DNA of 64,000 bases, from NCBI GenBank assembly GCA_963784065.1, contig CAWAQA010000004.1, positions 341,087-405,086 on the forward strand, read 5' to 3'. A program made the position numbers and the translations under genes. Below, in pieces: positions 11,428 to 56,278 of the stretch (position 1 is the first letter of the stretch; each line of letters starts with the position of its first letter). The notes beneath the pieces were generated by a model that was given only the letters and a program-made list of their open reading frames with translations, was not told the origin of the DNA and searched no databases. The stretch is from an uncultured Acidobacteriota bacterium. GTDB taxonomy: Bacteria; Acidobacteriota; Vicinamibacteria; Vicinamibacterales; UBA2999.

Positions 11428-11453
11428 AGTATAATAGCGCGTCCTTACGGCCT

Positions 11454-11502
11454 CCTGAGCCTTGTTCCTGAGCCCTGATGCCTGATCCCCGGGCCCTTTG
11501 AT
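11454..11502 (+). repeat. degenerate heptanucleotide array (CTGAGCC-type), 7 units, running into the guaA start
   Basis: Reads cctgagc cttgttc ctgagcc ctgatgc ctgatcc ccgggcc ctttgat when cut every 7 nt. Confidence 0.7.
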
Positions 11503-13051: not shown

Positions 13052-13054
13052 CAA

Positions 13055-13217
13055 TCATTGTTGATTGATGATCTGTGATTGATGATTCTGTGTTGAACGC
13101 GGATTGTCGAATGTTGATTGATATGCGGCGGAGCACGCCATTGCCACTCTCAGACAATCAGCAATCGAGAATCGCCAATCAACAACCAATCATCAATCAT
13201 CAGTCGGCAATCAGGAA
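13055..13217 (+). repeat. inverted pair of heptanucleotide arrays: about 10 units of TGATTGA-type, a 30-nt GC-rich core, then about 9 units of TCAATCA-type ending at the dnaE ATG
   Basis: Left array 13055-13124: tcattgt tgattga tgatctg tgattga tgattct gtgttga acgcgga ttgtcga atgttga ttgatat. Right array 13155-13217: caatcag caatcga gaatcgc caatcaa caaccaa tcatcaa tcatcag tcggcaa tcaggaa. The right word is the reverse complement of the left word. Confidence 0.8.
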
Positions 13218-16200
13218 TGTCTGAGTTCGTCCACCTCCACCTCCACACCGAGTTCTCGCTCCTCGACGGCGCCTGCCGGATCGACGAACTGCTCGACGAG
13301 GCGGTGAAGCTGAAGATGCCGGCGCTCGCGGTGACCGAGCATGGCAACATGTTCTCGTCGGTCGTGTTCCACGATCATGCGCGCGCGCGCGGACTCAAGC
13401 CGATCCTGGGGTGCGAGGTCTACGTCGCGCCAGGCGACCGGTTCGACAAGAGCGGGCCGCAGACCGAGACCAATCACCTCGTGCTGCTCGCGGAGACCGA
13501 CGAAGGCTACAAGAACCTGATCAAGCTGGTGTCCGCCGGCTACACCGAGGGGTTCTACTACCGGCCGCGGATCGACAAGGCGCTGCTCGAGCGGCATGCG
13601 AAGGGCCTCATCGGCCTGAGCAGCTGCCTCAAGGGTGAGGTCGCCAGCGCGCTCAGGATCGAGCAGGCGCGCCCGGCGCTCGAGGCGGCGGCACGGCTGC
13701 GGGACATCCTCGGCCAGGACAACTTCTTTCTCGAGATGCAGTATCAGGGCATCGAGGAGCAGCGGATCGTCAACAAGGGCCTGCTGCCGATCGCCAGTGA
13801 CCTCAACCTGCCGATCGTCGCGACCAACGACGTGCACTATCTGCGGCAGGGCGACCACCAGCCGCACGACATCCTGCTCTGCATCGGCACCGGCAAGACG
13901 GTCAACGACGCCCAGCGCCTCCGCTACACCGGCGACCAGTTTTTCCTCAAGACCGCCGCGCAGATGGCGGAGGTGTTCAAGGACCACCTCGACGCGCTGA
14001 AGAACACACTGGTCGTCGCCGAGCGCTGCAACGTCACGATCCCGACGGGGGCGAACCACCTGCCGTCCTTTGGCGTGCCCGAGGGCTATACGCTCGATCA
14101 GTACTTCGAGCACGTGGTGCGTGAAGGGTTCACCCAGCGGCTGACGCGCCTCCGGCAACTCGCCGCGACGGGCCACCTCCGCCACAGCGTCGACGAGTAC
14201 GAGCGTCGTCTCGAGTACGAGATCGAGATGATCAAGAAGATGGGGTACGTCGGGTACTTCCTCATCGTCTGGGACTTCATCCGCTACGCGCGCGAAGAAG
14301 GCATCCCCGTGGGCCCGGGCCGCGGCTCGGCGGCCGGGTCGCTGGTGGCGTGGTGCATGCGCATCACGGACGTGGATCCGATTGACTTCGGCCTCATCTT
14401 CGAGCGCTTTCTCAACCCCGAGCGCGTGTCGCTGCCCGACATCGATGTCGATTTCTGCGAACGCCGCCGCGGCGAGGTGATCGACTACGTCACGCGGAAA
14501 TACGGCCGCGAGAACGTCGCCCAGATCATCACGTTCGGCACGATGAAGGCGAAGGCGGTGGTGCGTGACGTCGGTCGCGCCCTCGACATGCCCTACGCCG
14601 ACGTCAACAACATCGCGAAGCAGATCCCGCCCGCGCTCGACATGACGCTGGACAAGGCGCTGGCGGAGAATCCGATCCTCAAGGACATGGCGGCGAAGGA
14701 CCCCCGGGTCAAGGAGGTGCTCGACATCGGGCGCCGTCTCGAAGGGATGTCACGCCACGCGTCGGTACACGCGGCCGGCGTGGTCATCGCGCCCGGACCG
14801 ATCACCGACTACGCGCCGCTCTACAAGGGGCAGCGCGACGAAATCACGACGCAGTGGAACATGAAGGAGGTGGAGCGCGTCGGCCTCCTGAAGATGGACT
14901 TCCTGGGGCTGAGCACGCTCACGCTCATCCAGGACTGTCTCGCCGAGATCAAGCGCACCGAGGGCGTCGAGCTCGACATCGACACGGTGCCGCTCGACGA
15001 TCCGAAGACCTACAAGGTGTTCGGCGACGGAGCGGCCTATGGCATCTTCCAGTTCGAGAGCTCCGGCATGCGCGAGCTGCTGCGGAAGGCGAAGCCGGAG
15101 CGGCTCGACGACCTGATCGCGCTCAACGCCCTGTACCGGCCGGGACCGCTCAAGTCGGGCATGGTGGACGACTTCATCGCGCGCAAGCAGGGCCTCAAGG
15201 AGATCAAGTACGAGCTCCCGCAGCTCGAGCCGATCCTGTCCGACACCTACGGGGTCATCGCGTATCAGGAGCAGGTCATGCGCATCGCGCAGTCGCTGGC
15301 CGGCTTCAGCCTCGGGCAGGCGGACGTGCTGCGCAAGGCCATGGGCAAGAAGGATCCCAAGGTCATGGCCATGCAGCGCGAGGCGTTCATGGCGGGCGCC
15401 AGGACGCTCAACGTCAACGAGAAGAAGGCGACCAAGATTTTCGACCTGATGGAGTACTTCGCCGGCTACGGCTTCAACAAGTCGCATTCCACGGCGTATG
15501 CCTTCCTCGCGTACCAGACCGCCTACCTCAAGGCGAACTATCCATGGCACTTCGCGGCGGCGCTGCTGACCATCGAGGCGCAGAACACGGACAAGCTGGC
15601 GATGTACCTGGCCGAATGCCGGGACCGCGGCATTCCGGTGCTGGCGCCCGATGTCAACGAGAGCCAGCTCAATTTCTCGGTGGAGCCCGGGCGCGGGGTG
15701 CGCTTCGGGCTGACGGCGATCAAGGGCCTCGGCGAAGGGGCGATCCGGTCGATTCTCGACGCCCGAACGCGGCTTGGCGGGCGCATCGCGTCGCTGCACG
15801 CGCTCTGCGAGATTCTCGACATGCGCCTGGCGAACAAGCGCGTGTTCGAAGCGCTCGTGAAGGCCGGCGCCTGCGATTCGCTGGCGCACGGCGCGGCCGA
15901 CATCGCCGCGCTGATGTCGACGCGGGCGCGGCTGTTCGCCGCGATCGAAGGCGCGTGCGAGCAGGGGGCCCGCACGCAGCGCGACAAGGAGCTGGGTCAG
16001 ACGGATCTGTTCGGCGGGAGCGACGAGCATGCGCCAGCCTCGGTCCAGCTGCCCGGCGTCCCGGCCTGGACCGAGGTCGAGCTGCTCAACTACGAACGCG
16101 ACACGCTCGGCCTGTTCCTCACCGGCCACCCGATCGATCGATGGGCCGATGATCTTCGCGAGTACGGCGCCAGGTCGATCGCCGACCTCGGCCTCAAGAA

Positions 16201-20105: not shown

Positions 20106-22433
20106 ATGAGATGGCAGAAAAGGGCTCGCTTCGGCGTGGCGGTCTTCGGGATCGCGTGCGCGATTGCCGTATACGCGGCCATCGGCGAGCGTGCGGCCGG
20201 GACACCCCCGGCCGCGCCTGCGCGCATCGATCCGAAGGCCATCATCGAGAGCGAGGGCGCACAGCTCCAGCAGGAACGCGGCGCCGAGCGTGACTTCGAC
20301 ATCAAGTCCGACCGCCAGCTCGCCTACGAGGACGGCTCCACCAAGCTCATCGGAGTCGAGATCCACGTCCGCGGCCGCCGCGGGCGTGATTTCGTCCTCA
20401 CCGGACGTGAAGCGCAGGCTGGCCAGAACCAGGACGACCTGCAGCTCGCCGGCGCCGTCAAGCTCGCGGCGAGCGACGGCTTCGTGCTCACCGCCGAAAG
20501 TGCGTCCTTCAGCCGCGGCGACGGCATCGTGCGCGCTCCGGGACCGATCGCGTTCGAGAAGGGACGGATGTCCGGCTCTGGCGTCGGGATGTCCTACGAC
20601 CAGGAGAACGACGTCGTGTCGCTGCTCGAGCAGGCGCGGGTGAAGACGGCAAACGAGAACGGCACCACCCAGATGGAGTTCACAGCCGGCTCCGCGGTGT
20701 TGAATCGTCTCCAGGACTACCTGACGCTCGAGGGCAGCGTGCACGCCCTGCGCGGGGAACAGGTGTTCGACGCTGACCGCGGCACGGCGCGTCTGACAAC
20801 GGGCGAAGACGCCGTCACCTTCATCGAGCTCCGCGGCAACGCCCGCGTGGCCGGGGGAAGCGGGACGCTCGATGCGATGAGTGCCCGCGACATCGATCTC
20901 GACTACACCGACGACGGCCAGACGCTCGAGCGCGTGCTGCTGACCGGCAGTGCGGCGCTGGCGATGACCGGGCAGAACGGCGGCAGCGGCCGCCAGATGA
21001 TCGGCGAGACGCTCGACGTCGTGCTCGCCCCCGACGGTGCGGTGACGAAAGCCACGGGCCGCGAGAAGGTGCAGCTCGACATGCCGGCCTCCGATGGCGT
21101 CGCCGCTCGAACGGTCAAGTCGAGGTTGCTCGATGCCGACGGCGAGCCGGGCAAGGGCCTGACGGCGGCACGCTTCACCGACAACGTGGAGTATCGGGAG
21201 GAAGCGCGTCAGGGGGCGGCGCCGCGCGCGGCGCGCTCGAACGCGCTGCAGGTGACCTTCGAGGACGATGCGATCGACAGCGCCGTGTTCACCGGCAGCG
21301 TGCGATTCGCCGAGGAGGGGCTGCAGGCGTCCGGCGCCGAGGCTCGCTACGACCCGAACGAGGGTCGCCTGCGTATCACCGGCATCGATGCGGGGGGGCC
21401 GCCGCGCGTCGCGGATGAGCAGATCACGATCGAGGCGCAGAAGAGCATCGACGTGACGCTCGAGGATCGCGGCATGAGCGCCGTCGGCGTCGTGAAGACA
21501 TCGCTGCGCTCAGGTGGCCGCACACTTGCGGGACGCGGCCGCGGCGCCGGCTCGGCCCGCGCGTCGCGCCTCCCGGGCCTGCTCAAGAACGAGGAGCCCG
21601 CCAACGTCTGGGCCGACGCCCTCCAGTACGAAGGTGGCGCCGGCAAGGCGGTCTACAGCGGCGACGCGAGGCTCTGGCAGGGCGAAACGGCCATCCGGGC
21701 AGACGTCATCACCATCGACCAGAACAACGGCGACCTCGCCGCGGTCGGCTCGGCGCGCTCGACCCTCGTGTTCGATAACGGCATCTCGCAGGGCCGCGCC
21801 GCTGAAATCCGCTACGACGACGCGAAGCGCGTCATCGGTTATTCGAACCCCATCCTGTCCTCGCTGCCGGCAGCGGCTGGCGGACGAGGAGCCGCACCGG
21901 CAAGCCCGTCTCCCGCAGCGCCGGCAATTCCGCCCACCGGTGCACCGGCTCTCCCGCCGACCGCGTTACCGGCAAGCCCGCCCACCGTTGCACCGGCAAG
22001 CCCGCCCACCGTTGCACCGGCAGGCCCGTCCACCGTTGCACCGGCAGGCCCGCCCGGCGTCGCACCGGTTGTCCCGCTCGTCACCTCGGCCCTGTTGAGT
22101 GGACCGCAGGGCGATCTGCGCGCGAATCGGATCGAGGTGATCCTCGCGCGGAACGGCAGCCGCGTGGAGCGGCTCGAGGCGTACACCGATGTCAGCGCCC
22201 GCGTCGATACGCGGCTCGCCACCGGCGGGCGCCTCACGTACTACGCCGAGGACGAGCGTTACGTGCTGGTCGGCGCGTCGCCGGTGCCGGTGAAGGTCGT
22301 GGACATCTGCCGCTCGACGAGCGGCAAGACGGTGACGTTCTTCAAGACGGCCGATCGGATCATCGTCGACGGCAACGAGGAGATTCGCACGCAGACGAAG
22401 AGCGGCGGACCGTGCTCCGCGCCCGCGCGCTGA
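20106..22433 (+). CDS. large LptC/LptA-like (OstA-family) periplasmic LPS-transport protein with an N-terminal membrane anchor and a Pro-rich repeat insert
   Basis: Intact 775-aa ORF immediately upstream of lptB. TM anchor [19 protein letters not shown]. It carries several LptA-like beta-jellyroll segments ([46 protein letters not shown]; [26 protein letters not shown]; [19 protein letters not shown]). The call rests on pattern and synteny, not on a search. Confidence 0.6.
21893..22078 (+). repeat. 24-nt (8-codon) tandem repeat, about 7.5 degenerate units, encoding PPTVAPAS-type Pro-rich linker
   Basis: Best units are caccgttgcaccggcaagcccgcc (21983-22006), caccgttgcaccggcaggcccgtc (22007-22030) and caccgttgcaccggcaggcccgcc (22031-22054). 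Flanking units are progressively more degenerate. Confidence 0.8.
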
Positions 22434-23172
22434 ATGTCCACCCACACGTCGACGCTCTGCACCCAGGCGCTCACGAAGTCGTACAGCGGACGCACCGTCT
22501 GTACGGGGCGTGAGCCTGGACGTGGCATCCGGGGAGGTGGTCGGCCTGCTCGGGCCGAATGGCGCGGGCAAGACCACGACGTTCTACATGACGGTCGGGC
22601 TCACGGTGCCCGATTCGGGACGCGTGATCCTCGACGGCGAGGATGTCACCGATGACCCGATGTATGTGCGCGCGCGAAAGGGTATCGGCTACCTGCCGCA
22701 GGAGCCGTCGATCTTCCGTGGCCTCTCCGTGGAACAGAACATCATGGCCATCCTCGAGACCCTCGATCTCGACGCCGCCGGACGGCGCGAGCGGCTGCGC
22801 GAGCTGCTCGCCGAGCTGAACCTGACGCCTCTCGCCAAGGCACCGGCTTACACACTCTCGGGTGGCGAACGCCGGCGCGCCGAGATCACGCGCGCGCTCG
22901 TCATCTCGCCGCGGTTCATCCTGCTCGACGAGCCGTTCGCGGGCATCGATCCGATCGCCGTGACGGATATCCAGAAGATCATCTTCCACCTGAAGGAGCG
23001 CGGGATCGGCGTGCTGATCACCGATCACAACGTCCGCGAGACGCTCCGCATCACGGACCGGGCATACATCGTGCACGACGGCGTAATCTTTCGGAGCGGC
23101 ACGCCCGATTCACTCGCCGCTGACGAAGAAGTGCGCCGGATTTATTTGGGAGCCGACTTCCGGCTGGACTAA
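22434..23172 (+). pseudogene. lptB: LPS export ABC transporter ATP-binding protein LptB. The frame is broken by one extra base at 22500.
   Basis: The N-terminus ...[10 protein letters not shown] lies in the frame of ORF 22434. It continues [30 protein letters not shown] in the frame of ORF 22510. Deleting t22500 joins them. Signature [15 protein letters not shown] and Walker [13 protein letters not shown] are present. Confidence 0.9.
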
Positions 23173-23199: not shown

Positions 23200-24621
23200 A
23201 TGGCGATTTCGCAGAAACTGCACACAAAGCTCGTCCAGAAGCTGATTCTGACGCCGTCGCTTCAGCAGGCGATCAAGCTCCTTCCGATGTCCACGCTCGA
23301 GCTCTCCGAACTTCTCAACCAGGAGATGGTCGAGAACCCGATGCTCGAGGAAGTTCCCACGGAAGAGCTTCAGCCGGTCGAAGCGGCGCAGGAAAAACAG
23401 GAAGAGAAGAAACCCGAGAACAAGGACACCTGGGACGATCAGGATTACGAGTACTTCTTCGGCGACTATCTCGACGACGGCTACCGCCCGCGCACGCCGA
23501 CCGAGGTCAAGGAGCTGCCGCCGATCGAGAACACGCTCTCGAGTACCGCCTCGCTCTCGGACCACCTCCTCTGGCAGCTCTCGATGCAGACCGACGATGC
23601 GGCCATGCGCGAAATCGGCGAGGCGATCATCGGCAACCTCGATGACGACGGTTATCTCGTCGCCACGGTCGACGAGCTCGCGGGCATGGGCCCGTGGCCG
23701 ACCGAAGTGGTCGAGCGCGCGCTCAAGCTGGTTCAGGGCTTCGACCCGATCGGCGTCGCCAGCCGCGACCTGCAGGAATGCCTGCTGCTCCAATTACGTC
23801 ATCTCGGCATGTCCGGTACGCCGTCCGAGCGGATCGTCACGGAGCACATGCGGCTCCTGCAGAACCACCAGGTGCCCGAGCTCGCGCGCAAGCTCGGGAT
23901 GTCGATCGACGATCTCAAACAGCACATCGAGCTGATCCGCCACCTCGATCCGAAACCCGGCAGCCGGCTGAACCCGTCGCAGTCCCAGTACGTGATCCCC
24001 GACGTCTACATCGTGAAGGTCGAGGATCAGTACGTGGCCGTGCTCAACGAGGAAGGCCTGCCGCAGCTCAGGATCAGTCCGGTGTACCGGCGCCTGCTCG
24101 ACAAGAGCGCGGTGGAGAACACGGACGAGACACGCGCCTACGTGAAGGACAAGTTCCGCTCGGCGCTGTGGCTGATCAAGTCGGTGGAGCAGCGGCAGAA
24201 GACGATTCACAAGGTCGCCAGCAGCATCATCAACTTCCAGCGCGACTTCCTCGACCACGGCATCGAGTATCTGCGTCCGCTCGTCCTGCGCGACGTCGCC
24301 AACGACATCGGGATGCACGAGTCCACGGTGAGCCGCGTCGTCACCAACAAGTACATGCACACGCCGCAAGGCGTGTTCGAGATGAAGTACTTCTTCCACA
24401 GCGGCATTGCCAGCTCGTACGGCGAGGCGGTCTCGTCCGTGACGATCAAGCAGCGCATCCGGAAGATCATCGAACAGGAGGATCCGCGCAAGCCGCTGAG
24501 CGACTCGAAGATCGTCAGCATCCTCCAGCGCGAGGGCCTCGAGCTGGCGCGGCGCACGATCGCCAAGTACCGGGAGGAACTGAAGATCCCCACCTCCAAC
24601 CAGCGCAAAGTCCTCTATTAG
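23200..24621 (+). CDS. rpoN: RNA polymerase sigma-54 factor
   Basis: Intact 473-aa ORF. The N-terminus MAISQKLHTKLVQKLILTPSLQQAIKLL is region I. HTH region RDVANDIGMHESTVSRV. RpoN box ARRTIAKYREELKIP. Confidence 0.95.
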   Translation: MAISQKLHTKLVQKLILTPSLQQAIKLLPMSTLELSELLNQEMVENPMLEEVPTEELQPVEAAQEKQEEKKPENKDTWDDQDYEYFFGDYLDDGYRPRTPTEVKELPPIENTLSSTASLSDHLLWQLSMQTDDAAMREIGEAIIGNLDDDGYLVATVDELAGMGPWPTEVVERALKLVQGFDPIGVASRDLQECLLLQLRHLGMSGTPSERIVTEHMRLLQNHQVPELARKLGMSIDDLKQHIELIRHLDPKPGSRLNPSQSQYVIPDVYIVKVEDQYVAVLNEEGLPQLRISPVYRRLLDKSAVENTDETRAYVKDKFRSALWLIKSVEQRQKTIHKVASSIINFQRDFLDHGIEYLRPLVLRDVANDIGMHESTVSRVVTNKYMHTPQGVFEMKYFFHSGIASSYGEAVSSVTIKQRIRKIIEQEDPRKPLSDSKIVSILQREGLELARRTIAKYREELKIPTSNQRKVLY

Positions 24622-24662
24622 CCGTGAGCCGTGGGCCTTGTGCCCTTGATTCCGATTGACTC
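24621..24662 (+). repeat. degenerate heptanucleotide array (GCCGTGN-type), 6 units, between rpoN stop and hpf start
   Basis: Reads gccgtga gccgtgg gccttgt gcccttg attccga ttgactc, then gcc ATG (24666). Confidence 0.7.
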
Positions 24663-24665
24663 GCC

Positions 24666-25233
24666 ATGCGTCTCGAACTGACTGGACGACACGTCACCAT
24701 CACCCCCAACATCCGTAAGCTGGTCGATCAGCAGCTGAAGCACGTGCAGCGCCTGCTCAACGATCACGCGGTCTCGGGGCAGATCGTGCTCACCAAGGAG
24801 AAATCGCGCGTGCACTGCGACGCGACCATCCACGCCCGCGGCGACAAGTTCCTGCACGGGGAGGCCTCGGGCAAGGACGTCGAGTCGGCCGTCGCCGGGG
24901 CGGTCGACAAGATCGATCGCCAGGCGCAGAAGATCAAGGGGAAATGGACCGAGAGCAAGCGCCGCGGCATCTCGGCGGCCAAGGCGGCGTCCGCCGCCCC
25001 CCGTCCCGAACGCGGCGGCAGGGCGTTTGGCGATCAGCCTCGCAGGCGGCGGAGAGGACGAGCTGCGGATCATCCGCGCCCGTCGCGCCGTGAAGCCGAT
25101 GACCATCGACGAAGCCGCCATGGAAGTAGGGGACGACAACAACGCGTTCGTCGTCTTCCGCAACGCGGACAACGACGAGATCACGGTGCTGTTCCGCCGG
25201 GCCGATGGCAACCTCGGGATAATCGAACCGTAA
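24666..25233 (+). pseudogene. hpf: ribosome hibernation-promoting factor, long form. One frame break near 25000.
   Basis: The N-terminal S30AE domain (MRLELTGRHVTITPNIRKLVDQQL...ARGDKFLHGEASGKDVESAVAGAVDKIDRQ) lies in ORF 24666. The C-terminal dimerisation domain (ELRIIRARRAVKPMTIDEAAMEVGDDNNAFVVFRNADNDEITVLFRRADGNLGIIEP) lies in ORF 25027..25233. The junction is in the Pro/Ala-rich linker around the C-run at 24997-25002. Confidence 0.85.
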
Positions 25234-25246
25234 GCGTAGCGGCCTG

Positions 25247-25324
25247 ATGCAAGTGCGAAATGCACGATGACAAACCGGACGTTTGGCATTCGGCATGGGG
25301 CATTTGGCATTGAGCATTGACATG
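25247..25324 (+). repeat. inverted heptanucleotide arrays: ATGCNNN-type (4 units) then NNGGCAT-type (6 units), ending on the hprK ATG
   Basis: Left array 25247-25274: atgcaag tgcgaaa tgcacga tgacaaa. Right array 25283-25324: ttggcat tcggcat ggggcat ttggcat tgagcat tgacatg. Confidence 0.75.
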
Positions 25325-26320
25325 GTCCCAGTCGTCACCGTCGCCGGCCTGCTGCACAGCCGGCCCGAAGCGATCGGCCTGCCGCTCGAACTGCTCAGCG
25401 GCGAGGGTGGCCTCGAGCGCGGAATCGCCAGCCCCCATATCCAGAAGACCGGTCTCGCGCTGACCGGTTTCGACGAGTATCTCCGTCCGGCCCGCATCCT
25501 CGTCTTCGGCGAGAGCGAGGTGCGGTATCTGGAAAGCCTGCCCGCCGAGCGACGGCTCAACACGCTCGCGTCGGTGTTCAGCCACGACATCCCGTGCGTG
25601 CTCATCACGGGCGGGTGGGTTCCCCCGATCGAGTTGCTCCTGGCGGCGGGGCGCTATCACGTGCCGTTGCTGCGGACCAACGTGGCGACGCCGCTCGCGA
25701 TCGCCAAGATCACGGCGCTGCTCGACGACCGGCTGGCGGTCCGCGAGGTGATCCATGGCGTGCTGATGGACATCCTCGGGCTCGGCGTGCTGATCGTGGG
25801 CGAGAGCGGCATCGGGAAGAGCGAGTGCGCCCTCGACCTCGTCGTGCGCGGACACCGGCTGGTCGCGGACGACACGGTGGAGGTCCGCCGGCGCGGTGAG
25901 ACCGTCGTCGTCGGCACATGTCCAGAGCTGACGCGGCATCACATGGAGGTCCGCGGCCTCGGCGTCATCAACATCCGCGACCTGTTCGGCGTCGCTTCGA
26001 CGCGCACGACGAAGCGCGTGGAGCTCGTGGTGCAGCTCGAACGGTGGGATCCGGCTCGTGAGTACGACCGCCTGGGCCTCGACGAGAACGTCTACGACCT
26101 CCTCGGCTTGAAGGTCCCGCTCATCCGCATGCCTGTCGCCCCGGGCCGCAGCCTGGCCATCCTGGTCGAGGTCGCGGCGCGGAACCAGCTGCTGCGGACG
26201 CGCGGCCTGAACGCCGCGAAGGAGCTCGTGTCGCGCCTCGAGCAGCAGTTGCGTGACGAGGACAGCGACCCGGACGCGGACGCGGATGCGGACGAGCTGG
26301 ACCCGGGGGACCGGCTGTGA
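25322..26320 (+). CDS. hprK: HPr kinase/phosphorylase
   Basis: Walker A GESGIGKSECALDLV. RGHRLVADD. HMEVRGLGVINIRDLFG. PGRSLAILVEVAARN. I prefer ATG 25322 (MVPVVTVAGLL) because the codons from 25283 only translate the heptad array. Confidence 0.9.
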   Translation: MVPVVTVAGLLHSRPEAIGLPLELLSGEGGLERGIASPHIQKTGLALTGFDEYLRPARILVFGESEVRYLESLPAERRLNTLASVFSHDIPCVLITGGWVPPIELLLAAGRYHVPLLRTNVATPLAIAKITALLDDRLAVREVIHGVLMDILGLGVLIVGESGIGKSECALDLVVRGHRLVADDTVEVRRRGETVVVGTCPELTRHHMEVRGLGVINIRDLFGVASTRTTKRVELVVQLERWDPAREYDRLGLDENVYDLLGLKVPLIRMPVAPGRSLAILVEVAARNQLLRTRGLNAAKELVSRLEQQLRDEDSDPDADADADELDPGDRL

Positions 26321-27374: not shown

Positions 27375-27785
27375 ATGATCGGGATCGTCGTCGTCACCCA
27401 TGGACAGCTGGCGACCGAGCTGCTGAATGCCGCCGAGACGATCGTCGGCGACCTGCCGCGCTTCACGGCCGTGTCGATCGGCTGGCACGAGGATACGCAG
27501 GATGCGCGCGACGAGATCGCGGCGGCCATCGGCCGCGTGCAGCAGGGTCAGGGCGTGGTGATCCTGACCGACATGTTTGGCGGGACGCCGTCGAACCTGG
27601 CGATGTCGTTTCTCGGGCAGCAGGACGTTGAAGTGATCACCGGCGTGAACCTGCCGATGTTGATCAAGCTGGCCGGCCTGAAGGAGCAGGACAGCCTGCT
27701 GACGGTCGCGCGCGAGATGCGCGAACATGGACGCAACGCGATCTGGGTGGCATCGGACCTGTTGCGGGGCGAGAAGGCTCAATGA
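27375..27785 (+). CDS. PTS EIIA component, mannose/fructose family
   Basis: Intact 136-aa ORF. MIGIVVVTHGQLATELL carries the phospho-His context. ILTDMFGGTPSN. No EIIB, EIIC or EIID gene lies nearby. Confidence 0.85.
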   Translation: MIGIVVVTHGQLATELLNAAETIVGDLPRFTAVSIGWHEDTQDARDEIAAAIGRVQQGQGVVILTDMFGGTPSNLAMSFLGQQDVEVITGVNLPMLIKLAGLKEQDSLLTVAREMREHGRNAIWVASDLLRGEKAQ

Positions 27786-27801: not shown

Positions 27802-27890
27802 CTGCCGCCTGTATTGCAGTCTGTACGCAGCCGTCTGCAGTGTTTCGATCGACGGTCACGGTGAAGATCGAGGATTGTAGATAGAGATGA
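27802..27890 (+). repeat. EIIA-ptsH spacer built of heptad words (CTGCNGN/GCAGTNT-type, then GAGGATN-type ending on the ptsH ATG)
   Basis: 27802-27843 reads ctgccgc ctgtatt gcagtct gtacgca gccgtct gcagtgt. 27863-27890 reads gaagatc gaggatt gtagata gagatga, with the ATG at 27887. Confidence 0.65.
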
Positions 27891-28165
27891 CCAGCAAAGC
27901 GGTCGTCGTGAGCAACCCGCTCGGGCTCCATGCCCGCGCGGCGGCGCGGTTCGTGCACCTGGCGACGCGGTTCGCGTCGCAGATTCGCGTCGCGCGGGAG
28001 TCGAAGGTGATGGACGGGAAGAGCATCATGGGTATCCTGCTGCTGGCCGCCGCGCGCGGCACGACCATCACGATTAGCGCCGAGGGCCTCGACGAGGCTG
28101 ATGCCGTCGCGGCGCTGGTGCGGCTGGTCGAATCCGGCTTTGGTGAGGAGTCGTGGAACGCCTGA
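27887..28165 (+). CDS. ptsH: phosphocarrier protein HPr
   Basis: Intact 92-aa ORF. His-15 context NPLGLHARAAARFV. Ser-46 context DGKSIMGILLL. Confidence 0.85.
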   Translation: MTSKAVVVSNPLGLHARAAARFVHLATRFASQIRVARESKVMDGKSIMGILLLAAARGTTITISAEGLDEADAVAALVRLVESGFGEESWNA

Positions 28166-30309: not shown

Positions 30310-30348
30310 CGTAGCAGGCAGCCGGCAGCGTGCAGTCCGCGGGCAGGC
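30306..30348 (+). repeat. heptad-word array (GCNGGCA-type) directly after the cupin stop
   Basis: A gtagc gtagc duplication is followed by gcaggca gccggca gcgtgca gtccgcg ggcaggc when cut every 7 nt. Confidence 0.55.
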
Positions 30349-30412
30349 GAAGCCCGCCTCGACGAACGCGATTGTCTGTTCAGCGTCGTCGAGGCGGACC
30401 TTCAGGTCCGCC
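30341..30412. repeat. head-to-head pair of REP-like hairpins (REPIN-like doublet)
   Basis: 30388-30412 is gtcga ggcggacc ttca ggtccgcc, a perfect 8-bp stem. 30341-30363 is gggcaggc gaa gcccgcct cgac, an imperfect stem in inverted orientation with head GTCG. The two are separated by 24 nt. Confidence 0.7.
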
Positions 30413-30419
30413 TGTCACT

Positions 30420-30436
30420 GCCAGCTGCCGGCTGGC
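30420..30436 (-). terminator. hairpin gccagc-tgccg-gctggc one nt downstream of the ssb stop
   Basis: A 6-bp perfect stem seen in the sequence. No clear U-tract. Confidence 0.35.
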
Positions 30437-30437
30437 C

Positions 30438-36046: not shown

Positions 36047-37758
36047 ATGCTGCGCTTCCTCCGCATCCGCAACCTTGCGGTGATCGAGGCCGTCGAGGTC
36101 GAATTCGAGCCCGGCTTCAACGTCCTGACCGGCGAGACCGGCGCGGGGAAGTCGATCCTCGTCGAGGCCGTCGGCCTGCTGCTCGGCGCCCGCGCCTCGT
36201 CCGACCTGGTGCGCACCGGCGAGGCCCAGGCGGCCATCGAGGCGATCTTCGAAGAACCGGGCGGCCGCGAGCTGATCGTGCGGCGCGAGATCACCAGCCA
36301 GGGCCGCAGCCGCTCGTTCATCAACGGCGCGCTCGCCACCGCGGCGGCGCTGCGCGACATCTCGGCGCGCCTCGTCGAACTGCACGGCCAGCACGAGCAC
36401 CAGGCGCTGCTCGATCCGCTCACGCACCTGCCGCTGCTCGATCACTACGCCAGTCTCGAGGAGCTGTCGGGGCGCGTGGGGGCCGCCTGGGGCGAGGTGC
36501 GGACGCTGCGCGAGCAGCTCGAGCGATCGCGCATGGACGCCCGCGAGAAGGCGGCGCGCCTCGACCTGATTGCGTTCCAGCTCGGCGAGATCGAGAAGGC
36601 GGCCCCGAAGCCCGGCGAGGACGAGGAGCTCGCAGCCACGAAGCAGGTGCTGGCCAGCGCCGAGCGCATCCAGCGGCTCTGCGAGGAAGGCTACGCCGCG
36701 CTCTACGAGCGAGACGACGCGGTGCTCGCCGGACTGGGCGGCGTCTGGAAGCGGGTCGGCGAGCTGGCGTCGATCGAGCCGCAGTTCGCGCCGTACCTCG
36801 ACGCGCGCGACGGCATCAAGTCGCAGCTCGAGGATCTCGCCTTCTTCCTGCGCAGCTACGCGGAGGGCGTCGACGCGTCGCCGGCGCGCCTGCAGCAGGT
36901 CGAGGACCGGCTGGCGCTGCTCGAGCGGCTGAAGCGCAAGTATGGACCGACGCTCCAGGACGTGATCGACGCGGGTGACACGCTCGCGCGCGAGCGCGCG
37001 CTGCTTGCCGGGGGAGGAGAGCGAGCCGAGGATCTGCAGCAGGCGCTCGCTGCCGCCAGCGATCGGTATCTCGCGGCGGCGCGCGCGCTCTCAGGCCAGC
37101 GGCGGAAGGCGGCCGTCCGCGGTTTGCGCGCCAGCTCGAAGCCCTGCTCGCGGAACTGGCGATGGCGCGCACCCGCTTCGAGGTCCGTTTCAACGAGGGC
37201 GAGCTGTCCGAGGCGTCGTGGAGCGAGCGCGGGATCGACCAGGCCGAGTTCTTCGTCTCGCCCAATCCGGGCGAGGACCTGCGCCCGCTCGCACGCATCG
37301 TCTCGGGCGGCGAGCTGTCGCGCGTGATGCTGGCGTTGAAGACGCTGGCGGCGTCCGACGCGGCGGGGAAGACGCTGATCTTCGACGAGGTGGATGCGGG
37401 CATCGGCGGCCGGGTGGCTGACGTCGTCGGGGCGAAGCTGCGGACGCTCGGAGGCCGCTTTCAGGTGCTGTGCATCACCCACCTCCCGCAGATTGCCGCG
37501 CGGGGCACGACCCAGTTCCTGATCGAGAAGCGCGTCCGCGGCAATCGCACGGTGACCTCGGTCGAGCGCCTCGACCATGCCGGGCGGGTGGAGGAGATTG
37601 CGCGCATGATCGGCGGCGCCGCCGTCACGGAGCCGTGCGCGCCAGCGCCCGGGAATTGCTGGGCGCGGCGGCCGGAGGCGAAAGCGAAAGTGCCGAAAGG
37701 CGAAAGCGAAAGTCCCAAAGGGCCCGCTCTGAAAGCGCGACGCTCAGACCGTCGATGA
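36047..37758 (+). pseudogene. recN: DNA repair protein RecN. Two frame breaks (about 37120 and about 37640). The 3' end is uncertain.
   Basis: [47 protein letters not shown] carries the Walker A. ELHGQHEHQ. After ...RRKAAVR the sequence continues FARQLEALLAELAMARTRFEV...SGGELSRVMLALK...LIFDEVDAGIGG...CITHLPQIAA in ORF 37162. The family-typical tail VRASARELL is in a third frame. Stops are available at 37732, 37758 or 37814, depending on the frame. Confidence 0.88.
37677..37720 (+). repeat. 22-nt direct tandem repeat (2 units) built from CGAAAG hexamers
   Basis: ggcgaaagcgaaagtgccgaaa (37677-37698) is followed by ggcgaaagcgaaagtcccaaag (37699-37720). Confidence 0.8.
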
Positions 37759-51375: not shown

Positions 51376-52176
51376 TCAGCGCACTGACCGCGTCGTCAGC
51401 ACCGAAGCCGCATCGCGATCGAGGTACAACTCGGCGCGGCGGTGCAGCTGCAGGAACGACGCAGGCAGGTGCGGCGTCAACGGGCCATTGATCGTCCGCT
51501 CGATGCAGCGCGCCTTCCGTTCTCCCATCGCGACGAGAATGAGCGTCGCCGCTTTCAGGATCGTTCCCATCCCCATCGACAGCGCCTCGCGCGGCACTCG
51601 GGACGGATCGCCGCCGAACAGCGCCGCGTTGTCGCGGCGCGTCGTTTCCGCCAGGGTCACGCGGTGCGTGCGCGACACGAGCTCGTCGCCAGGCTCGTTG
51701 AAGCCGATGTGTCCGTTCGCTCCGATGCCGAGAATCTGGAGGTCGATCCCGCCCGTCGCTTCGATCTCCTGCTCGTAGCGTCGTGCACTCCGCGTCGAGG
51801 TCGGCGGCAGCGCCGTTGAGAAAATGAATGCGCTGCGGCGCCAGATTGACGGCTGCGAACAGATGCTGTCTCCATGAACCGGCGGAAGCTGCCGGCATGC
51901 GACGGCGTCCACGCCGGCGAACTCGTCGAGGTTGAACGTCACCGCGCGCCCGAAGTCGGCTTCTCCCGCGGCATGGAGGCGCCGCAACTCCGCATACATC
52001 GCCACGGGCGTACGGCCGGTGGGCAGGCCGAGGACGACGTCGGGCTTCTCGCGTAACGCATCGGCGACACGCCGCGCGAGCGCGGCGGCGACCTGGGCGG
52101 GAGTGTCGAAGATCTTGACGTTCACCAGAGTCGATGCAGCCGGCAGCTGGGAGCAGGCAGCCAGCAGCGAATGCAC
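51376..52176 (-). pseudogene. nagB: glucosamine-6-phosphate deaminase NagB. Two frame breaks in the middle.
   Basis: VNVKIFDTPAQVAAALARRVADALREKPDVVLGLPTGRTPVAMY and GGIDLQILGIGANGHIGFNEPG lie in ORF 51376..52176. The intervening HLFAAVNLAPQRIHFLNGAAADLDAEC is found only in the frame of ORF 50219..51898. The start is ATG 52176 or GTG 52125. Confidence 0.85.
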
Positions 52177-52249
52177 TTACGGCTCAATGAGGTGAACGAT
52201 ACGGCCTTCAGCATCTTGTTGCGCGGAAGGTCACTGCCGGCTGCCGGCC

Positions 52250-53185
52250 TCATATGTACGACGGCACCGTGGCCCGTCCCTGTGCGGTCGCGATGGCGAG
52301 GCGCACGGCACCGATCGCAGGTTCGACGTCCAGGAGGCGAACCTCGCTTCGCGGAGCGACCTCGGAGATCCTTCTGGTCACGTCGGCCGCGAGCCACGGC
52401 ACACCGCGGAAGATGCCACCGGCCAGGATGGTCGGGAAGACATCGCCGCGCATTTCCAGCCGCGAGATGACCGACGACGCGGCGGAGGCCAGTTCGGTGC
52501 CGGCGCGCGTGAGAATGTCGGCCGCGACCGCGTCGCGCCGTTCCATCGCGGTCTGCACCAGCGAGGCCAGCGCCGTGATGGTGCGCCGGTGCACATCGCG
52601 GTCGTAGATCTCGCGGATGAGCGCGGTTGGGCTGGCGAGGTTCAAATGGTCCAGTACGAGCTCGGTCAGCAGCGTCGCAGGGCCGCGGCCGTCGTACTGC
52701 CGAACGACCGCCGACAGCGCCGCGCGGCCGATCCAGTAGCCGCCGCCTTCGTCGCCGAGCAGATAACCCCAGCCGCCGGCGCGCGCCGCGTGTCCGCTCG
52801 CGTCCTTCCCGTACGCGATCGATCCGGTGCCGGCGACGAGGACTACGCCCGGGTTCTCGCCGGCGCCGGCGACGAGGGCGACCAGCGCGTCGTTCACGAC
52901 AAGGGTGGGCGTCTTGAAGCCGATGCGCCGCATGATGCCGCGAACGGCGTCGGCGTCTCCAGGCCGATCGACGCCCGCAATGCCGAGGCAGATCGCCGCC
53001 GGCAGCCCCTCGCGCTCCGCAAGCACGGCCTCCATGACGTGGTGGAGCACCTTCTCGACTTCCAGCTCCCCCGCGGCCTGCAGGTTCGCACCGCTGCCGC
53101 GCGCCTCGGCAATGACGCGGCCCTCCGCGTCCGCGAGGATGCACACCGTCTTGGTGCCGCCGGCGTCGATGCCGAGAACGTGCAT
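52250..53185 (-). CDS. N-acetylglucosamine kinase, BadF/BadG/BcrA/BcrD ATPase family
   Basis: MHVLGIDAGGTKTVCILAD carries the phosphate-1 motif. GIAGVD. LVAGTGSIAYG. GWGYLLGDEGGGYWIG. The start is ATG 53185; the ORF opens at 53269. Confidence 0.8.
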   Translation of the reverse strand: MHVLGIDAGGTKTVCILADAEGRVIAEARGSGANLQAAGELEVEKVLHHVMEAVLAEREGLPAAICLGIAGVDRPGDADAVRGIMRRIGFKTPTLVVNDALVALVAGAGENPGVVLVAGTGSIAYGKDASGHAARAGGWGYLLGDEGGGYWIGRAALSAVVRQYDGRGPATLLTELVLDHLNLASPTALIREIYDRDVHRRTITALASLVQTAMERRDAVAADILTRAGTELASAASSVISRLEMRGDVFPTILAGGIFRGVPWLAADVTRRISEVAPRSEVRLLDVEPAIGAVRLAIATAQGRATVPSYI

Positions 53186-55266: not shown

Positions 55267-55328
55267 TGGGCAGTGGGCACGACCCACGCGAGGCGCTGCC
55301 AACTGCTGACTGCGGAGTGCCGACTACT
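55266..55328. repeat. convergent-gene spacer made of 9 heptad words (GTGGGCA-type then NACTGCN-type)
   Basis: Reads gtgggca gtgggca cgaccca cgcgagg cgctgcc aactgct gactgcg gagtgcc gactact. The spacer lies exactly between the two stop codons (55264-55266 and 55328-55330). Confidence 0.7.
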
Positions 55329-56278
55329 TACGGGACCGTGAACGGGGAACCGCCGCGGCCGCGGCCGCCTGGCAATTGGAGCGGTGATGCGCCGCTGCCC
55401 TGCGGCAATCCGCGTCCGCCGCCACCCAGGCCAGGCGTCGGCAGACCTCTCCCTCGTCCTTCCATGCCTGGCAACTGCGTGCCCCGTCCGCCCGGCGTCG
55501 CCGTGCCGGGGACGCCGCCGCCCGCCTGCTGGTTGGCTTCGGTCGCGACGAACGCCCACTCGTTGTATTTGTTGCGGCCGTTGAAGAGGCGCAGTGAGGT
55601 CTGCTCGCTCTTGCTGACGACACCCAGGACAGGTCCCGTTGTCCCCCCGGTACCTGGGCGCGTCACGCGATTGAAGCCAGACGCGGCCGGGCCCGTTCCG
55701 CCGCCGGCGCCCAATCCGAGGGTCGCGCCCGTGCCACGCCCACCGGTCGGATCCGTGCCCTGGCCGGTGCCAAGTCCCGTCCCGCGGCCTGCGCCGGCCC
55801 CCAATCCCCCGCCGCTCCCCAATCCCCCGCCGCTCCCCAATCCTCCGCCGCCCCCCAATCCTGCTCCTGCCCCTAACCCCGCGCCGCCCCCTAACCCTGC
55901 TCCTGCTCCGCGGCCGGGGACCACCGGCGCAGTCATCTGGCCTGGCACTGGCGTGCCGACCGAGATGATCTGGAACTCGCCGTCCGCCGTCATCGGGTCC
56001 TTGTACTTTTTCCGGAGGAACTTCTCGTTGACGAGGACGTCAACGCTCGGCGGGAACGCGCCGCGACTGCGCTGGTAGAGCGCGACGGCGCGCGAGTACT
56101 GCAGTCCGCGGAATACGAGCTCTTCTTCGCGCTCGCGCCGGGCGAGCGTCCCCCACGCGGGCAGCAGCATGCTGAGCGCGATGGACATCACGCTCAGCAT
56201 GATGAGCAGCGCAGCCATCGCGAAGCCGCGCTCGCTACTAGAGAACGATCGTCGTGGTGCCGGTTCCCGTGCGCCCAT
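55328..56278 (-). CDS. Gly-rich pseudopilin-like protein with a hydrophobic N-terminal helix (last gene of the pilus/T2SS-like operon)
   Basis: Intact 316-aa ORF. ...SSERGFAMAALLIMLSVMSIALSMLLPAW resembles a prepilin leader plus helix, but has Ala where the conserved Glu5 would be. Then LVFRGLQYSRAVALYQ and FLRKKYKDPMT, and long GLGxGG and GGRG tracts. The start at 56278 overlaps the upstream gene by 41 nt. Confidence 0.55.
   Translation of the reverse strand: MGAREPAPRRSFSSSERGFAMAALLIMLSVMSIALSMLLPAWGTLARREREEELVFRGLQYSRAVALYQRSRGAFPPSVDVLVNEKFLRKKYKDPMTADGEFQIISVGTPVPGQMTAPVVPGRGAGAGLGGGAGLGAGAGLGGGGGLGSGGGLGSGGGLGAGAGRGTGLGTGQGTDPTGGRGTGATLGLGAGGGTGPAASGFNRVTRPGTGGTTGPVLGVVSKSEQTSLRLFNGRNKYNEWAFVATEANQQAGGGVPGTATPGGRGTQLPGMEGRGRGLPTPGLGGGGRGLPQGSGASPLQLPGGRGRGGSPFTVP
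55799..55906 (-). repeat. 18-nt tandem repeat, 6 units, encoding (G-A/G-G-L-G-x) hexapeptides
   Basis: Plus-strand units: ccccaatcccccgccgct (twice), ccccaatcctccgccgcc, ccccaatcctgctcctgc, ccctaaccccgcgccgcc, ccctaaccctgctcctgc. Confidence 0.85.

Follow-up and report, generated by a model that had tools for sequence, protein, structure and literature searches.

A heptanucleotide repeat palindrome in the hpf-hprK spacer of an uncultured acidobacterium, probably a weakened copy of an old intercistronic element

Background

Among the long simple repeats of many bacterial genomes, those with heptanucleotide units have been known since 2007 to be in greatest excess, and they are without an accepted cause or function. 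As reported in two later papers that cite the original survey (Mrazek, Guo & Shah 2007, via PMC4679880, PMC4692102), heptanucleotides are the most abundant class of long simple sequence repeats (LSSRs) in many bacteria, and polymerase slippage has been proposed for their general excess. Here we analyse a stretch of 64,000 nucleotides (the window) from an uncultured Acidobacteriota bacterium of the order Vicinamibacterales (assembly GCA_963784065.1, contig CAWAQA010000004.1, positions 341,087 to 405,086), in which two arrays of 7-nt units (heptads) face each other in the intercistronic spacer between hpf and hprK, the gene of HPr kinase/phosphorylase. Such arrays resemble LSSRs, as the latter are summarized in those two papers, in that tandem units of 7 nt are in excess over units of other lengths, are mostly intergenic, are sporadic among lineages and invite an explanation by slippage; they differ in having imperfect units, dozens of words per lineage and paired inverted arms that usually fill the spacer.

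Several other described systems are comparable. The (GGGAATC)n or (GGGANTN)n repeats of Xanthomonas and the GGGGA(C/T)T repeats of Nostoc are about 90% intergenic and lie mostly between co-directional genes (PMC4692102). Like the present arrays, they are made of heterogeneous heptads in which some positions are conserved and others vary, they differ in length among related species, and part of them (about 40%) stand as convergent inverted pairs from which stem-loops could form; however, each uses throughout the genome a single G-rich word with the potential to form G-quadruplexes and lies nearer the upstream open reading frame (ORF; 28 nt versus 160 nt), whereas here many words without that potential occur and the element runs to about 8 nt from the downstream start codon. 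The TAACTGA heptamers of marine Beggiatoaceae likewise stand directly 5' of start codons, over the expected ribosome-binding site, with canonical Shine-Dalgarno (SD) motifs rare (PMC4679880), but they consist of one perfect word in nearly always direct orientation (one inverted case), whereas the words here are diverse and mostly arranged as inverted, hairpin-forming pairs. Several tandem heptanucleotide words per genome, again intergenic, are found in the STRR repeats of cyanobacteria (Calothrix, Anabaena), as cited in PMC4692102. These belong to another phylum and use low-GC words. To our knowledge, a stop-to-start hairpin geometry has not been described for them.

The repetitive extragenic palindromic (REP) sequences and bacterial interspersed mosaic elements (BIMEs) of enterobacteria form intercistronic or 3' hairpins that can stabilize the upstream mRNA and, near a stop codon, affect translation termination; REPs are families of near-identical copies of about 35 nt, associated with RAYT transposases and devoid of internal 7-nt periodicity. 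In contrast, no such copy family is seen within the 64 kb studied here. The ω operators and parS sites of plasmid pSM19035, which are read by a ribbon-helix-helix (RHH) protein, comprise 7-10 contiguous 7-bp units, direct and inverted, with a conserved 5-bp core (PMC9499535, PMC2441792), but there one word serves one cognate protein at plasmid promoters, whereas here many words stand in intra-operon chromosomal spacers, and a scan of the hpf-hprK spacer found no promoter. Heptanucleotide elements of Geobacter are a further known case (PMC2700814). In the literature that we searched, we found no report of heptamer or tandem repeats in Acidobacteria or Vicinamibacter. The kind of element is known; what sets the present case apart is its phylum, the multitude of words in each genome and lineage, the prevalence of arms that mirror each other and the span from stop codon to start codon.

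Results and discussion

Facing heptad arrays between hpf and hprK

The original prediction, made from the sequence alone, read the spacer as ATGC-type heptads on the left facing GGCAT-type heptads on the right, the second array running into the hprK ATG. Units and positions are exact (Table 1), and an inverted-repeat search returns 21-nt arms that are 76% complementary. The periodicity test that had been suggested separates the two arms. Compared with itself at a lag of 7 nt, the right array (5.5 units) matches at 26 of 35 positions, a score that none of 5000 shuffles of the spacer reached at any lag from 4 to 11, and Tandem Repeats Finder (TRF) calls it with period 7 and 4.3 copies. Within 64 kb only two sites reach at least 24/35 at lag 7, this array and the dnaE leader (13155-13219), and other periods that are not multiples of 3 never rise above 23/35. 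Three consecutive exact matches to GGCATNNGGCAT are found in the right array only, and GGCAT heptad pairs are confined to the hpf-hprK spacer, so that GGCAT is not shared by many genes of the window in the manner of TAACTGA. The left array, on the other hand, matches itself at 11 of 21 positions (in spacer shuffles, p = 0.025 for a lag of 7 and 0.19 for any lag from 4 to 11) and taken alone is within chance; we regard it as genuine because it is homologous to clear (C)AATGC heptad arrays in five relatives (loci L001, L083, L084, L088 and L090).

The hpf stop codon of relatives corresponds to TAG 25237 of the window, and the left arm thus starts 1 nt past the ancestral stop; the TAA at 25231 that now closes hpf is a GAA or GAG codon in relatives, two codons before their stop. 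At the other end the array finishes at 25321, the ATG follows at 25322, and no SD-like motif precedes hprK. Scanning positions 24500-25600 revealed no sigma-70-like promoter and no intrinsic terminator (a GC-rich stem-loop with a U tract), the hairpin being followed by the ATG, and Rfam gave nothing at gathering score in the window, the best permissive hits scoring 13-16 bits against cut-offs of 35-59. Two other readings of the array were discarded: TGGCAT as part of a sigma-54 -24/-12 element, for which the GG-N10-GC spacing fails in every register by eye, and stop codons in all three frames as the reason for a period of 7, since arrays are inconsistent in this respect and GGCAT provides none.

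The hpf-hprK spacer had also been likened to the guaA-dnaE spacer, as the same architecture with a different word, and this likeness holds up. There, GATTG arrays face CAATC arrays in the strongest heptad palindrome of the window (-69 kcal/mol, z = -4.6), which spans from 1 nt past the guaA stop to the dnaE ATG (13217-13219), the ATG being part of the final unit, AGGAATG. Nowhere else in the 64 kb do CAATC heptad pairs occur, and the design recurs with many words in relatives.

Relatives carry the same hairpin

The proteins most similar to HprK (74-80% identity) all come from Vicinamibacterales/Acidobacteriota metagenome-assembled genomes or from soil metagenome contigs. The five named above have, in the same spacer, a (C)AATGC-type left array that begins directly after the hpf stop and a GGCAT(T)/TGCAT-type right array that reaches to 0-17 nt from the hprK ATG. 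Measured against mononucleotide shuffles, their spacers fold with z scores of -8.7 (L001), -3.8 (L083), -2.6 (L084), -8.9 (L088) and -7.9 (L090), and a separate folding of selected elements gave -6.6 for the hprK spacer of L001. An alignment of the six genomes (the window and these five) recovers a consensus hairpin of 28 pairs, 24 of which form in the window row. Paired cells make up 84.5% of this alignment, compared with 78.9 ± 1.8% in shuffles (1 of 500 reaches the observed value), and compensatory cells number 11, compared with 5.4 (0 of 500); when the partner column is slid as a control, about 34% are paired. The compensatory changes fall mostly at the variable positions of the heptads. 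The ATGC/GCAT word is common to all six genomes, across HprK identities of 74-80%, while the orthologous arrays of more distant genomes differ in unit number.

Given the orthologous arrays, the compensatory change and the 24 of 28 pairs retained, we conclude that the window holds an authentic, though weakened, copy of an element that is old and has been passed on vertically. Its right arm is intact and its left arm is decayed, and any function that it has here is modest and dispensable.

The hprK start lies beyond the array

Automatic translation extends hprK upstream through the array, and this extension (AFGMGHLALSID) had been taken for a translation of the repeat. We looked for its conservation as protein in relatives and found stop codons and unrelated sequence instead. 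ATG 25322 aligns, within one codon, with the ATG, GTG or TTG start of hprK in 20 relatives, whose start codons were assigned by alignment and proximity, and in-frame stops lie 0-14 codons upstream in several of them. The in-frame reading is wafgpgh-stop-algid-M in L001, ...h-stop-a..-M in L083 and L084, and similar in L088; the likeness of these pseudo-peptides among repeat-sharing genomes follows from the GGCAT DNA that they share. In the 332-aa protein the match to the Pfam profile Hpr_kinase_N begins at residue 22, which corresponds to position 12 of the profile, and since this match is already present from ATG 25322 no extra N-terminus is needed. The comparison thus supports a non-coding array and places the true hprK start, by conservation, at ATG 25322. 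Two in-frame codons inside the right arm, TTG 25283 and ATG 25295, are rated as spurious starts, with a residual doubt that ATG 25295 may serve as a minor start. Heptad arrays evidently lead gene callers to overextend ORFs, as with hprK.

Period-7 arrays are a property of the lineage

We extended the analysis to loci of relatives; as these all represent a single operon and are linked by phylogeny, the counts given here are not independent events. With a threshold of at least 24/35 at lag 7, Vicinamibacterales loci (378 kb) yield 22 real period-7 arrays, and loci of Chlamydiota, Verrucomicrobiota, Myxococcota and others (194 kb) yield none. When metagenome loci are included (667 kb), 50 such arrays are found, or 7.5 per 100 kb, whereas periods of 4, 5, 8, 10 and 11 each give 0-1 per 100 kb. 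A gene caller based on GC content at third codon positions, tried as a means to divide the window's spectrum into intergenic and coding parts, proved leaky, its 'non-coding' part being still 3-periodic; we therefore used curated operon spacers, namely four intercistronic spacers delimited by tblastn (rpoN-hpf, hpf-hprK, rapZ-EIIA and EIIA-HPr). When 130 distinct spacers of 40-300 nt are pooled, their autocorrelation peaks at lags 7 (0.407), 14 (0.376) and 21 (0.332), on a background of about 0.27. Of 60 spacers with strong periodicity, 42 have a best period of 7, 11 of 9 and 4 of 8. Both heptad periodicity and hairpin formation become more frequent with spacer length; spacers free of any element typically measure -4 to 30 nt.

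The words are diverse. We counted more than 25 core words among 44 arrays, including GGCAT, CAATC, GACTG, GGTTC, GGTGCT, CAGCTNC, GACCA and GGGAGAA, and they tend to be tied to particular spacers and to last within clades (for example, CAGCTG-type words in the rpoN-hpf spacers of many genomes). The usual unit is a conserved word of 4-5 nt followed by 2-3 variable bases, often in two inverted arrays; a strict unit of five conserved and two variable positions holds only as a modest trend.

Intact elements are long, near-perfect hairpins in which the heptads of one arm mirror those of the other even at the variable positions. Among them are L005 (-165.8 kcal/mol, z = -16), L010 (z = -9.3), L014 (z = -9) and L009 (z = -6.4), and with mononucleotide shuffles 46 of the 130 spacers have z below -3. 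In these 46 hairpins the main stem begins a median of 3 nt (interquartile range 0-5) past the upstream stop, finishes a median of 8 nt (5-13) before the downstream start and fills 88% of spacers that are 54-251 nt long, leaving an unpaired remainder of about 11 nt, which is the size of an ordinary short spacer. An SD-like motif precedes hprK in none of 14 hairpin spacers and in 5 of 38 short spacers. Heptad spacers have a GC content of 0.59, other spacers 0.66 and the hprK coding sequence 0.70.

The elements can turn over rapidly. Three loci at about 89-90% nucleotide identity have a 167-nt GGTTC hairpin (L086), 31 nt (L087) and 0 nt (L092) at the same spacer, and L011 and L107 share a GATTGCT hairpin where L101 has an unrelated period-9 array. 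Whole elements are gained, lost or replaced quickly, and they are dispensable. The pair L110 and L123, with identical spacers in otherwise 89%-identical loci, is uninformative: these two metagenome contigs are 100% identical over about 1 kb that includes the hpf-hprK heptad hairpin and then fall to about 70% inside hprK, a mosaic explained either by a breakpoint of recombination or by chimerism in the assembly.

Hairpins of the same design also occur with other unit lengths. Units of 9 nt (GGCAGGANN / NNTCCTGCC) are found in rapZ-EIIA spacers, where L103 has z = -8.9, and a conserved TA(C/G)GATAGA motif stands between hairpin and EIIA start in this period-9 group. Loci with hairpins of a period other than 7 are L012, L041, L102, L103, L108 and L114 (all rapZ-EIIA spacers), together with L143, L010 and L146; the hairpin of L143 has 8-nt units and z = -13.8.

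Proposed origin and effect

We hypothesize that the hpf-hprK element is a heptanucleotide repeat palindrome born by slippage that acts, at most, as a dispensable intercistronic hairpin, a reading to which we assign a probability of roughly 0.6. Slipped-strand replication would duplicate the 7-nt units, and template switching between the arms of the quasipalindrome, a process known to perfect imperfect inverted repeats (PMC7202029), would keep the arms complementary, the alternative being selection for pairing; both steps are inferred. The word at a given spacer would be inherited vertically over long periods. In the polycistronic mRNA the two arms would pair and fold the insertion away, so that the hpf stop and the SD-less hprK start stay adjacent. 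The 3' arm would cover the ribosome-landing region and occlude the hprK start, and a ribosome that terminates 0-5 nt before the 5' arm may unwind the base of the stem and make the start accessible, which would amount to translational coupling or damping. A site of mRNA processing or stability, in the manner of REPs, is equally possible. The coupling role is the least secure step of this proposal.

Several observations count against parts of it. The spacer of the window itself folds at -32.5 kcal/mol, with z = -0.36 against dinucleotide shuffles and -1.9 against mononucleotide shuffles of the exact spacer, and its hairpin is thermodynamically marginal; of the folding test suggested originally, what stands is the formation of 24 of 28 consensus pairs, and what fails is stability beyond that of shuffles. 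Most relatives have no element at this spacer at all. Four strain pairs at 98.7-99.9% identity show unchanged unit numbers and so give no sign of slippage in progress. Unit mismatches cluster in two adjacent phases (0.545, compared with 0.512 expected from random decay; z = 3.2), which leaves room for a constraint at the level of the unit, though not a strong case for one. Heptad hairpins divide 13 to 13 between sense and antisense, with similar G-U pair counts, and because this asymmetry is absent there is no specific pointer to selection at the RNA level. Finally, two elements of the window are not placed between a stop and a start: a convergent stop-to-stop spacer (30310-30437) holds a hairpin of -84 kcal/mol (z = -6.2), its outer arms the heptads GCAGGCA GCCGGCA / CTGCCAG CTGCCGG, and the guaA leader (11443-11497) holds a direct-only array (CCTGAGC CTTGTTC CTGAGCC CTGATGC CTGATCC ...) that runs up to the start codon without a hairpin (z = 0.24). 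That array lies 3' of a TATAAT hexamer (11428-11433), and a consensus scan called no full promoter there. With these two elements present, bridging from stop to start cannot be the general reason for heptad arrays.

We stress that the lineage is an unusually clean case: the heptad signal dominates the autocorrelation of intercistronic DNA, the arms remain complementary as the words change, and the hairpin geometry stays constant, close to the upstream stop codon and a little short of the downstream start, which separates 'period 7' from 'a particular motif'. Cultured relatives, among them Vicinamibacter and Luteitalea, make it possible to test the hypotheses of slippage, template switching and coupling. 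A bolder and rather unlikely extension is that Vicinamibacterales possess a lineage-specific system that builds and maintains heptad palindromes, through either a property of replication or repair or a reader that steps by 7 nt, and that the hairpins have been co-opted as bridges from stop to start. If so, ribosomes would reinitiate on the next SD-less gene across an insert of 50-250 nt, a bacterial analogue of hairpin shunting, and the lineage would offer a tractable model for the favoured 7-nt unit in bacteria.

Alternative explanations

The arrays could instead be binding sites of a protein that reads 7-nt units and regulates transcription or translation of hprK, on the model of the ω RHH repressor of pSM19035 on DNA or of an RNA binder with multiple OB folds (S1 or Csp) on the mRNA leader. 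A 5-nt core with two variable bases, present in both orientations, is reminiscent of ω operators (PMC9499535, PMC2441792), an array over the ribosome-binding region of an SD-less gene recalls the TAACTGA repeats (PMC4679880), and the slight clustering of mismatches by phase would suit a recognized unit. However, the word varies by spacer and lineage, with more than 25 core words in 44 arrays, and so many different words disfavour a single sequence-specific binding protein; with words this diverse, and GGCAT and CAATC each confined to its own spacer, specific recognition would need dozens of proteins. The scan of the spacer found no sigma-70-like promoter, the GGCAT heptad is not reused in the 64 kb, and the complementarity of the arms of intact members even at variable positions fits a hairpin better than independent sites. 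We consider regulation by such a protein improbable.

We see a similarly small chance that a decayed mobile element, a miniature inverted-repeat transposable element (MITE) or REP-like palindrome, was inserted between hpf and hprK. Presence and absence alternate at about 10% divergence (L086, L087, L092), L086 has perfect terminal inverted 11-mers, matches to GGCAGCCGGCAG recur in the window (11, compared with 1.25 expected), and similar words such as CAATC and GGTTC appear at different spacers of different genomes, all of which speaks for insertion. Yet we saw no target-site duplication at L086, the ATGC/GCAT element is shared by descent among six genomes with divergence at the level of the unit, words are largely specific to their spacer, and the 64-kb window holds no second GGCAT or CAATC element. 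We know of no REP or MITE family of which internal 7-nt periodicity is a property.

Little credence is likewise due to the view that the spacer is neutral junk without effect, or that the left array and hairpin are coincidental and only a short right microsatellite is real. It would account for a left array that is not significant alone, for a hairpin whose z score is not significant and for relatives' spacers that mostly measure -4 to 30 nt, but it does not accommodate the two-armed homologous elements of five relatives with their strong folds, the excess of compensatory changes over shuffles or the stop and start geometry conserved over 46 hairpins. It is very improbable that HprK is extended at its N-terminus by translation of the array (MAFGMGHLALSID... 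or MGHLALSID from ATG 25295), for although the frame is open from TTG 25283 and contains an in-frame ATG at 25295, relatives have in-frame stops, non-homologous spacers and a start conserved at 25322, and the Pfam N-terminal domain is complete without added residues.

Gene row and other repeats of the window

The GC content of the window is about 68%, and Pfam identifies HPF, HprK, RapZ, GuaA and DnaE in it. The element lies within a conserved gene row that includes genes of the phosphotransferase system (PTS), and the coordinates are collected in Table 1.

Table 1. Positions in the window of the hpf-hprK element, its units and its neighbouring genes, and of the comparison spacer guaA-dnaE
Feature	Position	Strand	Basis or remark
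Left (5') arm, degenerate ATGC-type heptads	25240-25274	+	Sequence; alignment to (C)AATGC arrays of relatives
Left-array units	atgcaag 25247-53, tgcgaaa 25254-60, tgcacga 25261-67, tgacaaa 25268-74		
Central non-repeat loop segment ccggacgt	25275-25282	+	Apex of minimum-free-energy fold, short local pairs only
Right (3') arm, adjoins start codon	25283-25321	+	Lag-7 match 26/35; TRF period 7
Right-array units	ttggcat 25283-89, tcggcat 25290-96, ggggcat 25297-303, ttggcat 25304-10, tgagcat 25311-17, tgacATG 25318-24		
TAG matching hpf stop of relatives	25237-25239	+	Window gaaccgTAAgcgTAG; relatives gaacc(t/c)ga(a/g)gcgTAG/TGA
lptB	22510-23172		Conserved gene row
rpoN	23200-24621		Conserved gene row
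hpf (long HPF)	24666-25233	+	TAA stop 25231-25233; Pfam Ribosomal_S30AE 1.7e-17, Ribosom_S30AE_C 5e-14
hprK (HPr kinase/phosphorylase)	25322-26320	+	Start ATG 25322-25324; Pfam Hpr_kinase_N and Hpr_kinase_C; 332 aa
rapZ	to 27315		Conserved gene row, 3' of hprK
PTS EIIA gene	27375-27785		Conserved gene row
HPr	27887-28165		Conserved gene row, then ptsI
guaA-dnaE spacer, GATTG arrays facing CAATC arrays	13052-13216	+	Flanking genes by Pfam

The hpf gene of the window looks frameshifted, with the S30AE N-terminal domain in the frame of 24666 and the C-terminal domain in the +1 frame (25027-25233); the shift is placed at about 25033-25044, in the linker region (24990-25060). In relatives hpf is one continuous ORF of about 190-200 aa whose product ends in ...EPEA. 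Either the gene is decaying, or the frameshift and the early TAA are errors of sequencing or assembly.

Weaker heptads are scattered over the window, some of them in neighbouring spacers of the hpf-hprK operon. Past the rpoN stop, positions 24625-24652 read CCGTGAG CCGTGGG CCTTGTG CCCTTGA, and positions 27863-27889, which end on the HPr start, read GAAGATC GAGGATT GTAGATA GAG followed by the ATG. Two more elements are weak and inverted: on the minus strand, 52117-52250 has two copies of GCCGGCA just before a TGA and five of CTGCnnn, the last of them 8 nt short of a GTG start (z = -1.3), and at 55267-55331 TGGGCAG TGGGCAC after a TAG face CTGCCAA CTGCTGA CTGCGGA GTGCCGA (z = -1.6). The matches to GGCAGCCGGCAG (the GGCAGCC word), searched with at most one mismatch, comprise two intergenic loci and further, probably coding, sites.

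Three longer tandem repeats complete the survey. A 24-nt unit repeated 7.3 times (21894-22068) lies inside a large LptA-like ORF and encodes a proline-rich repeat, and an 18-nt unit repeated 5.6 times (55788-55898) looks like proline-rich coding sequence; both appear unrelated to the heptads. TRF also reports a 22-nt unit in 2.1 copies at 37676-37721 (AGGCGAAAGCGAAAGTCCCAA, 92% match).

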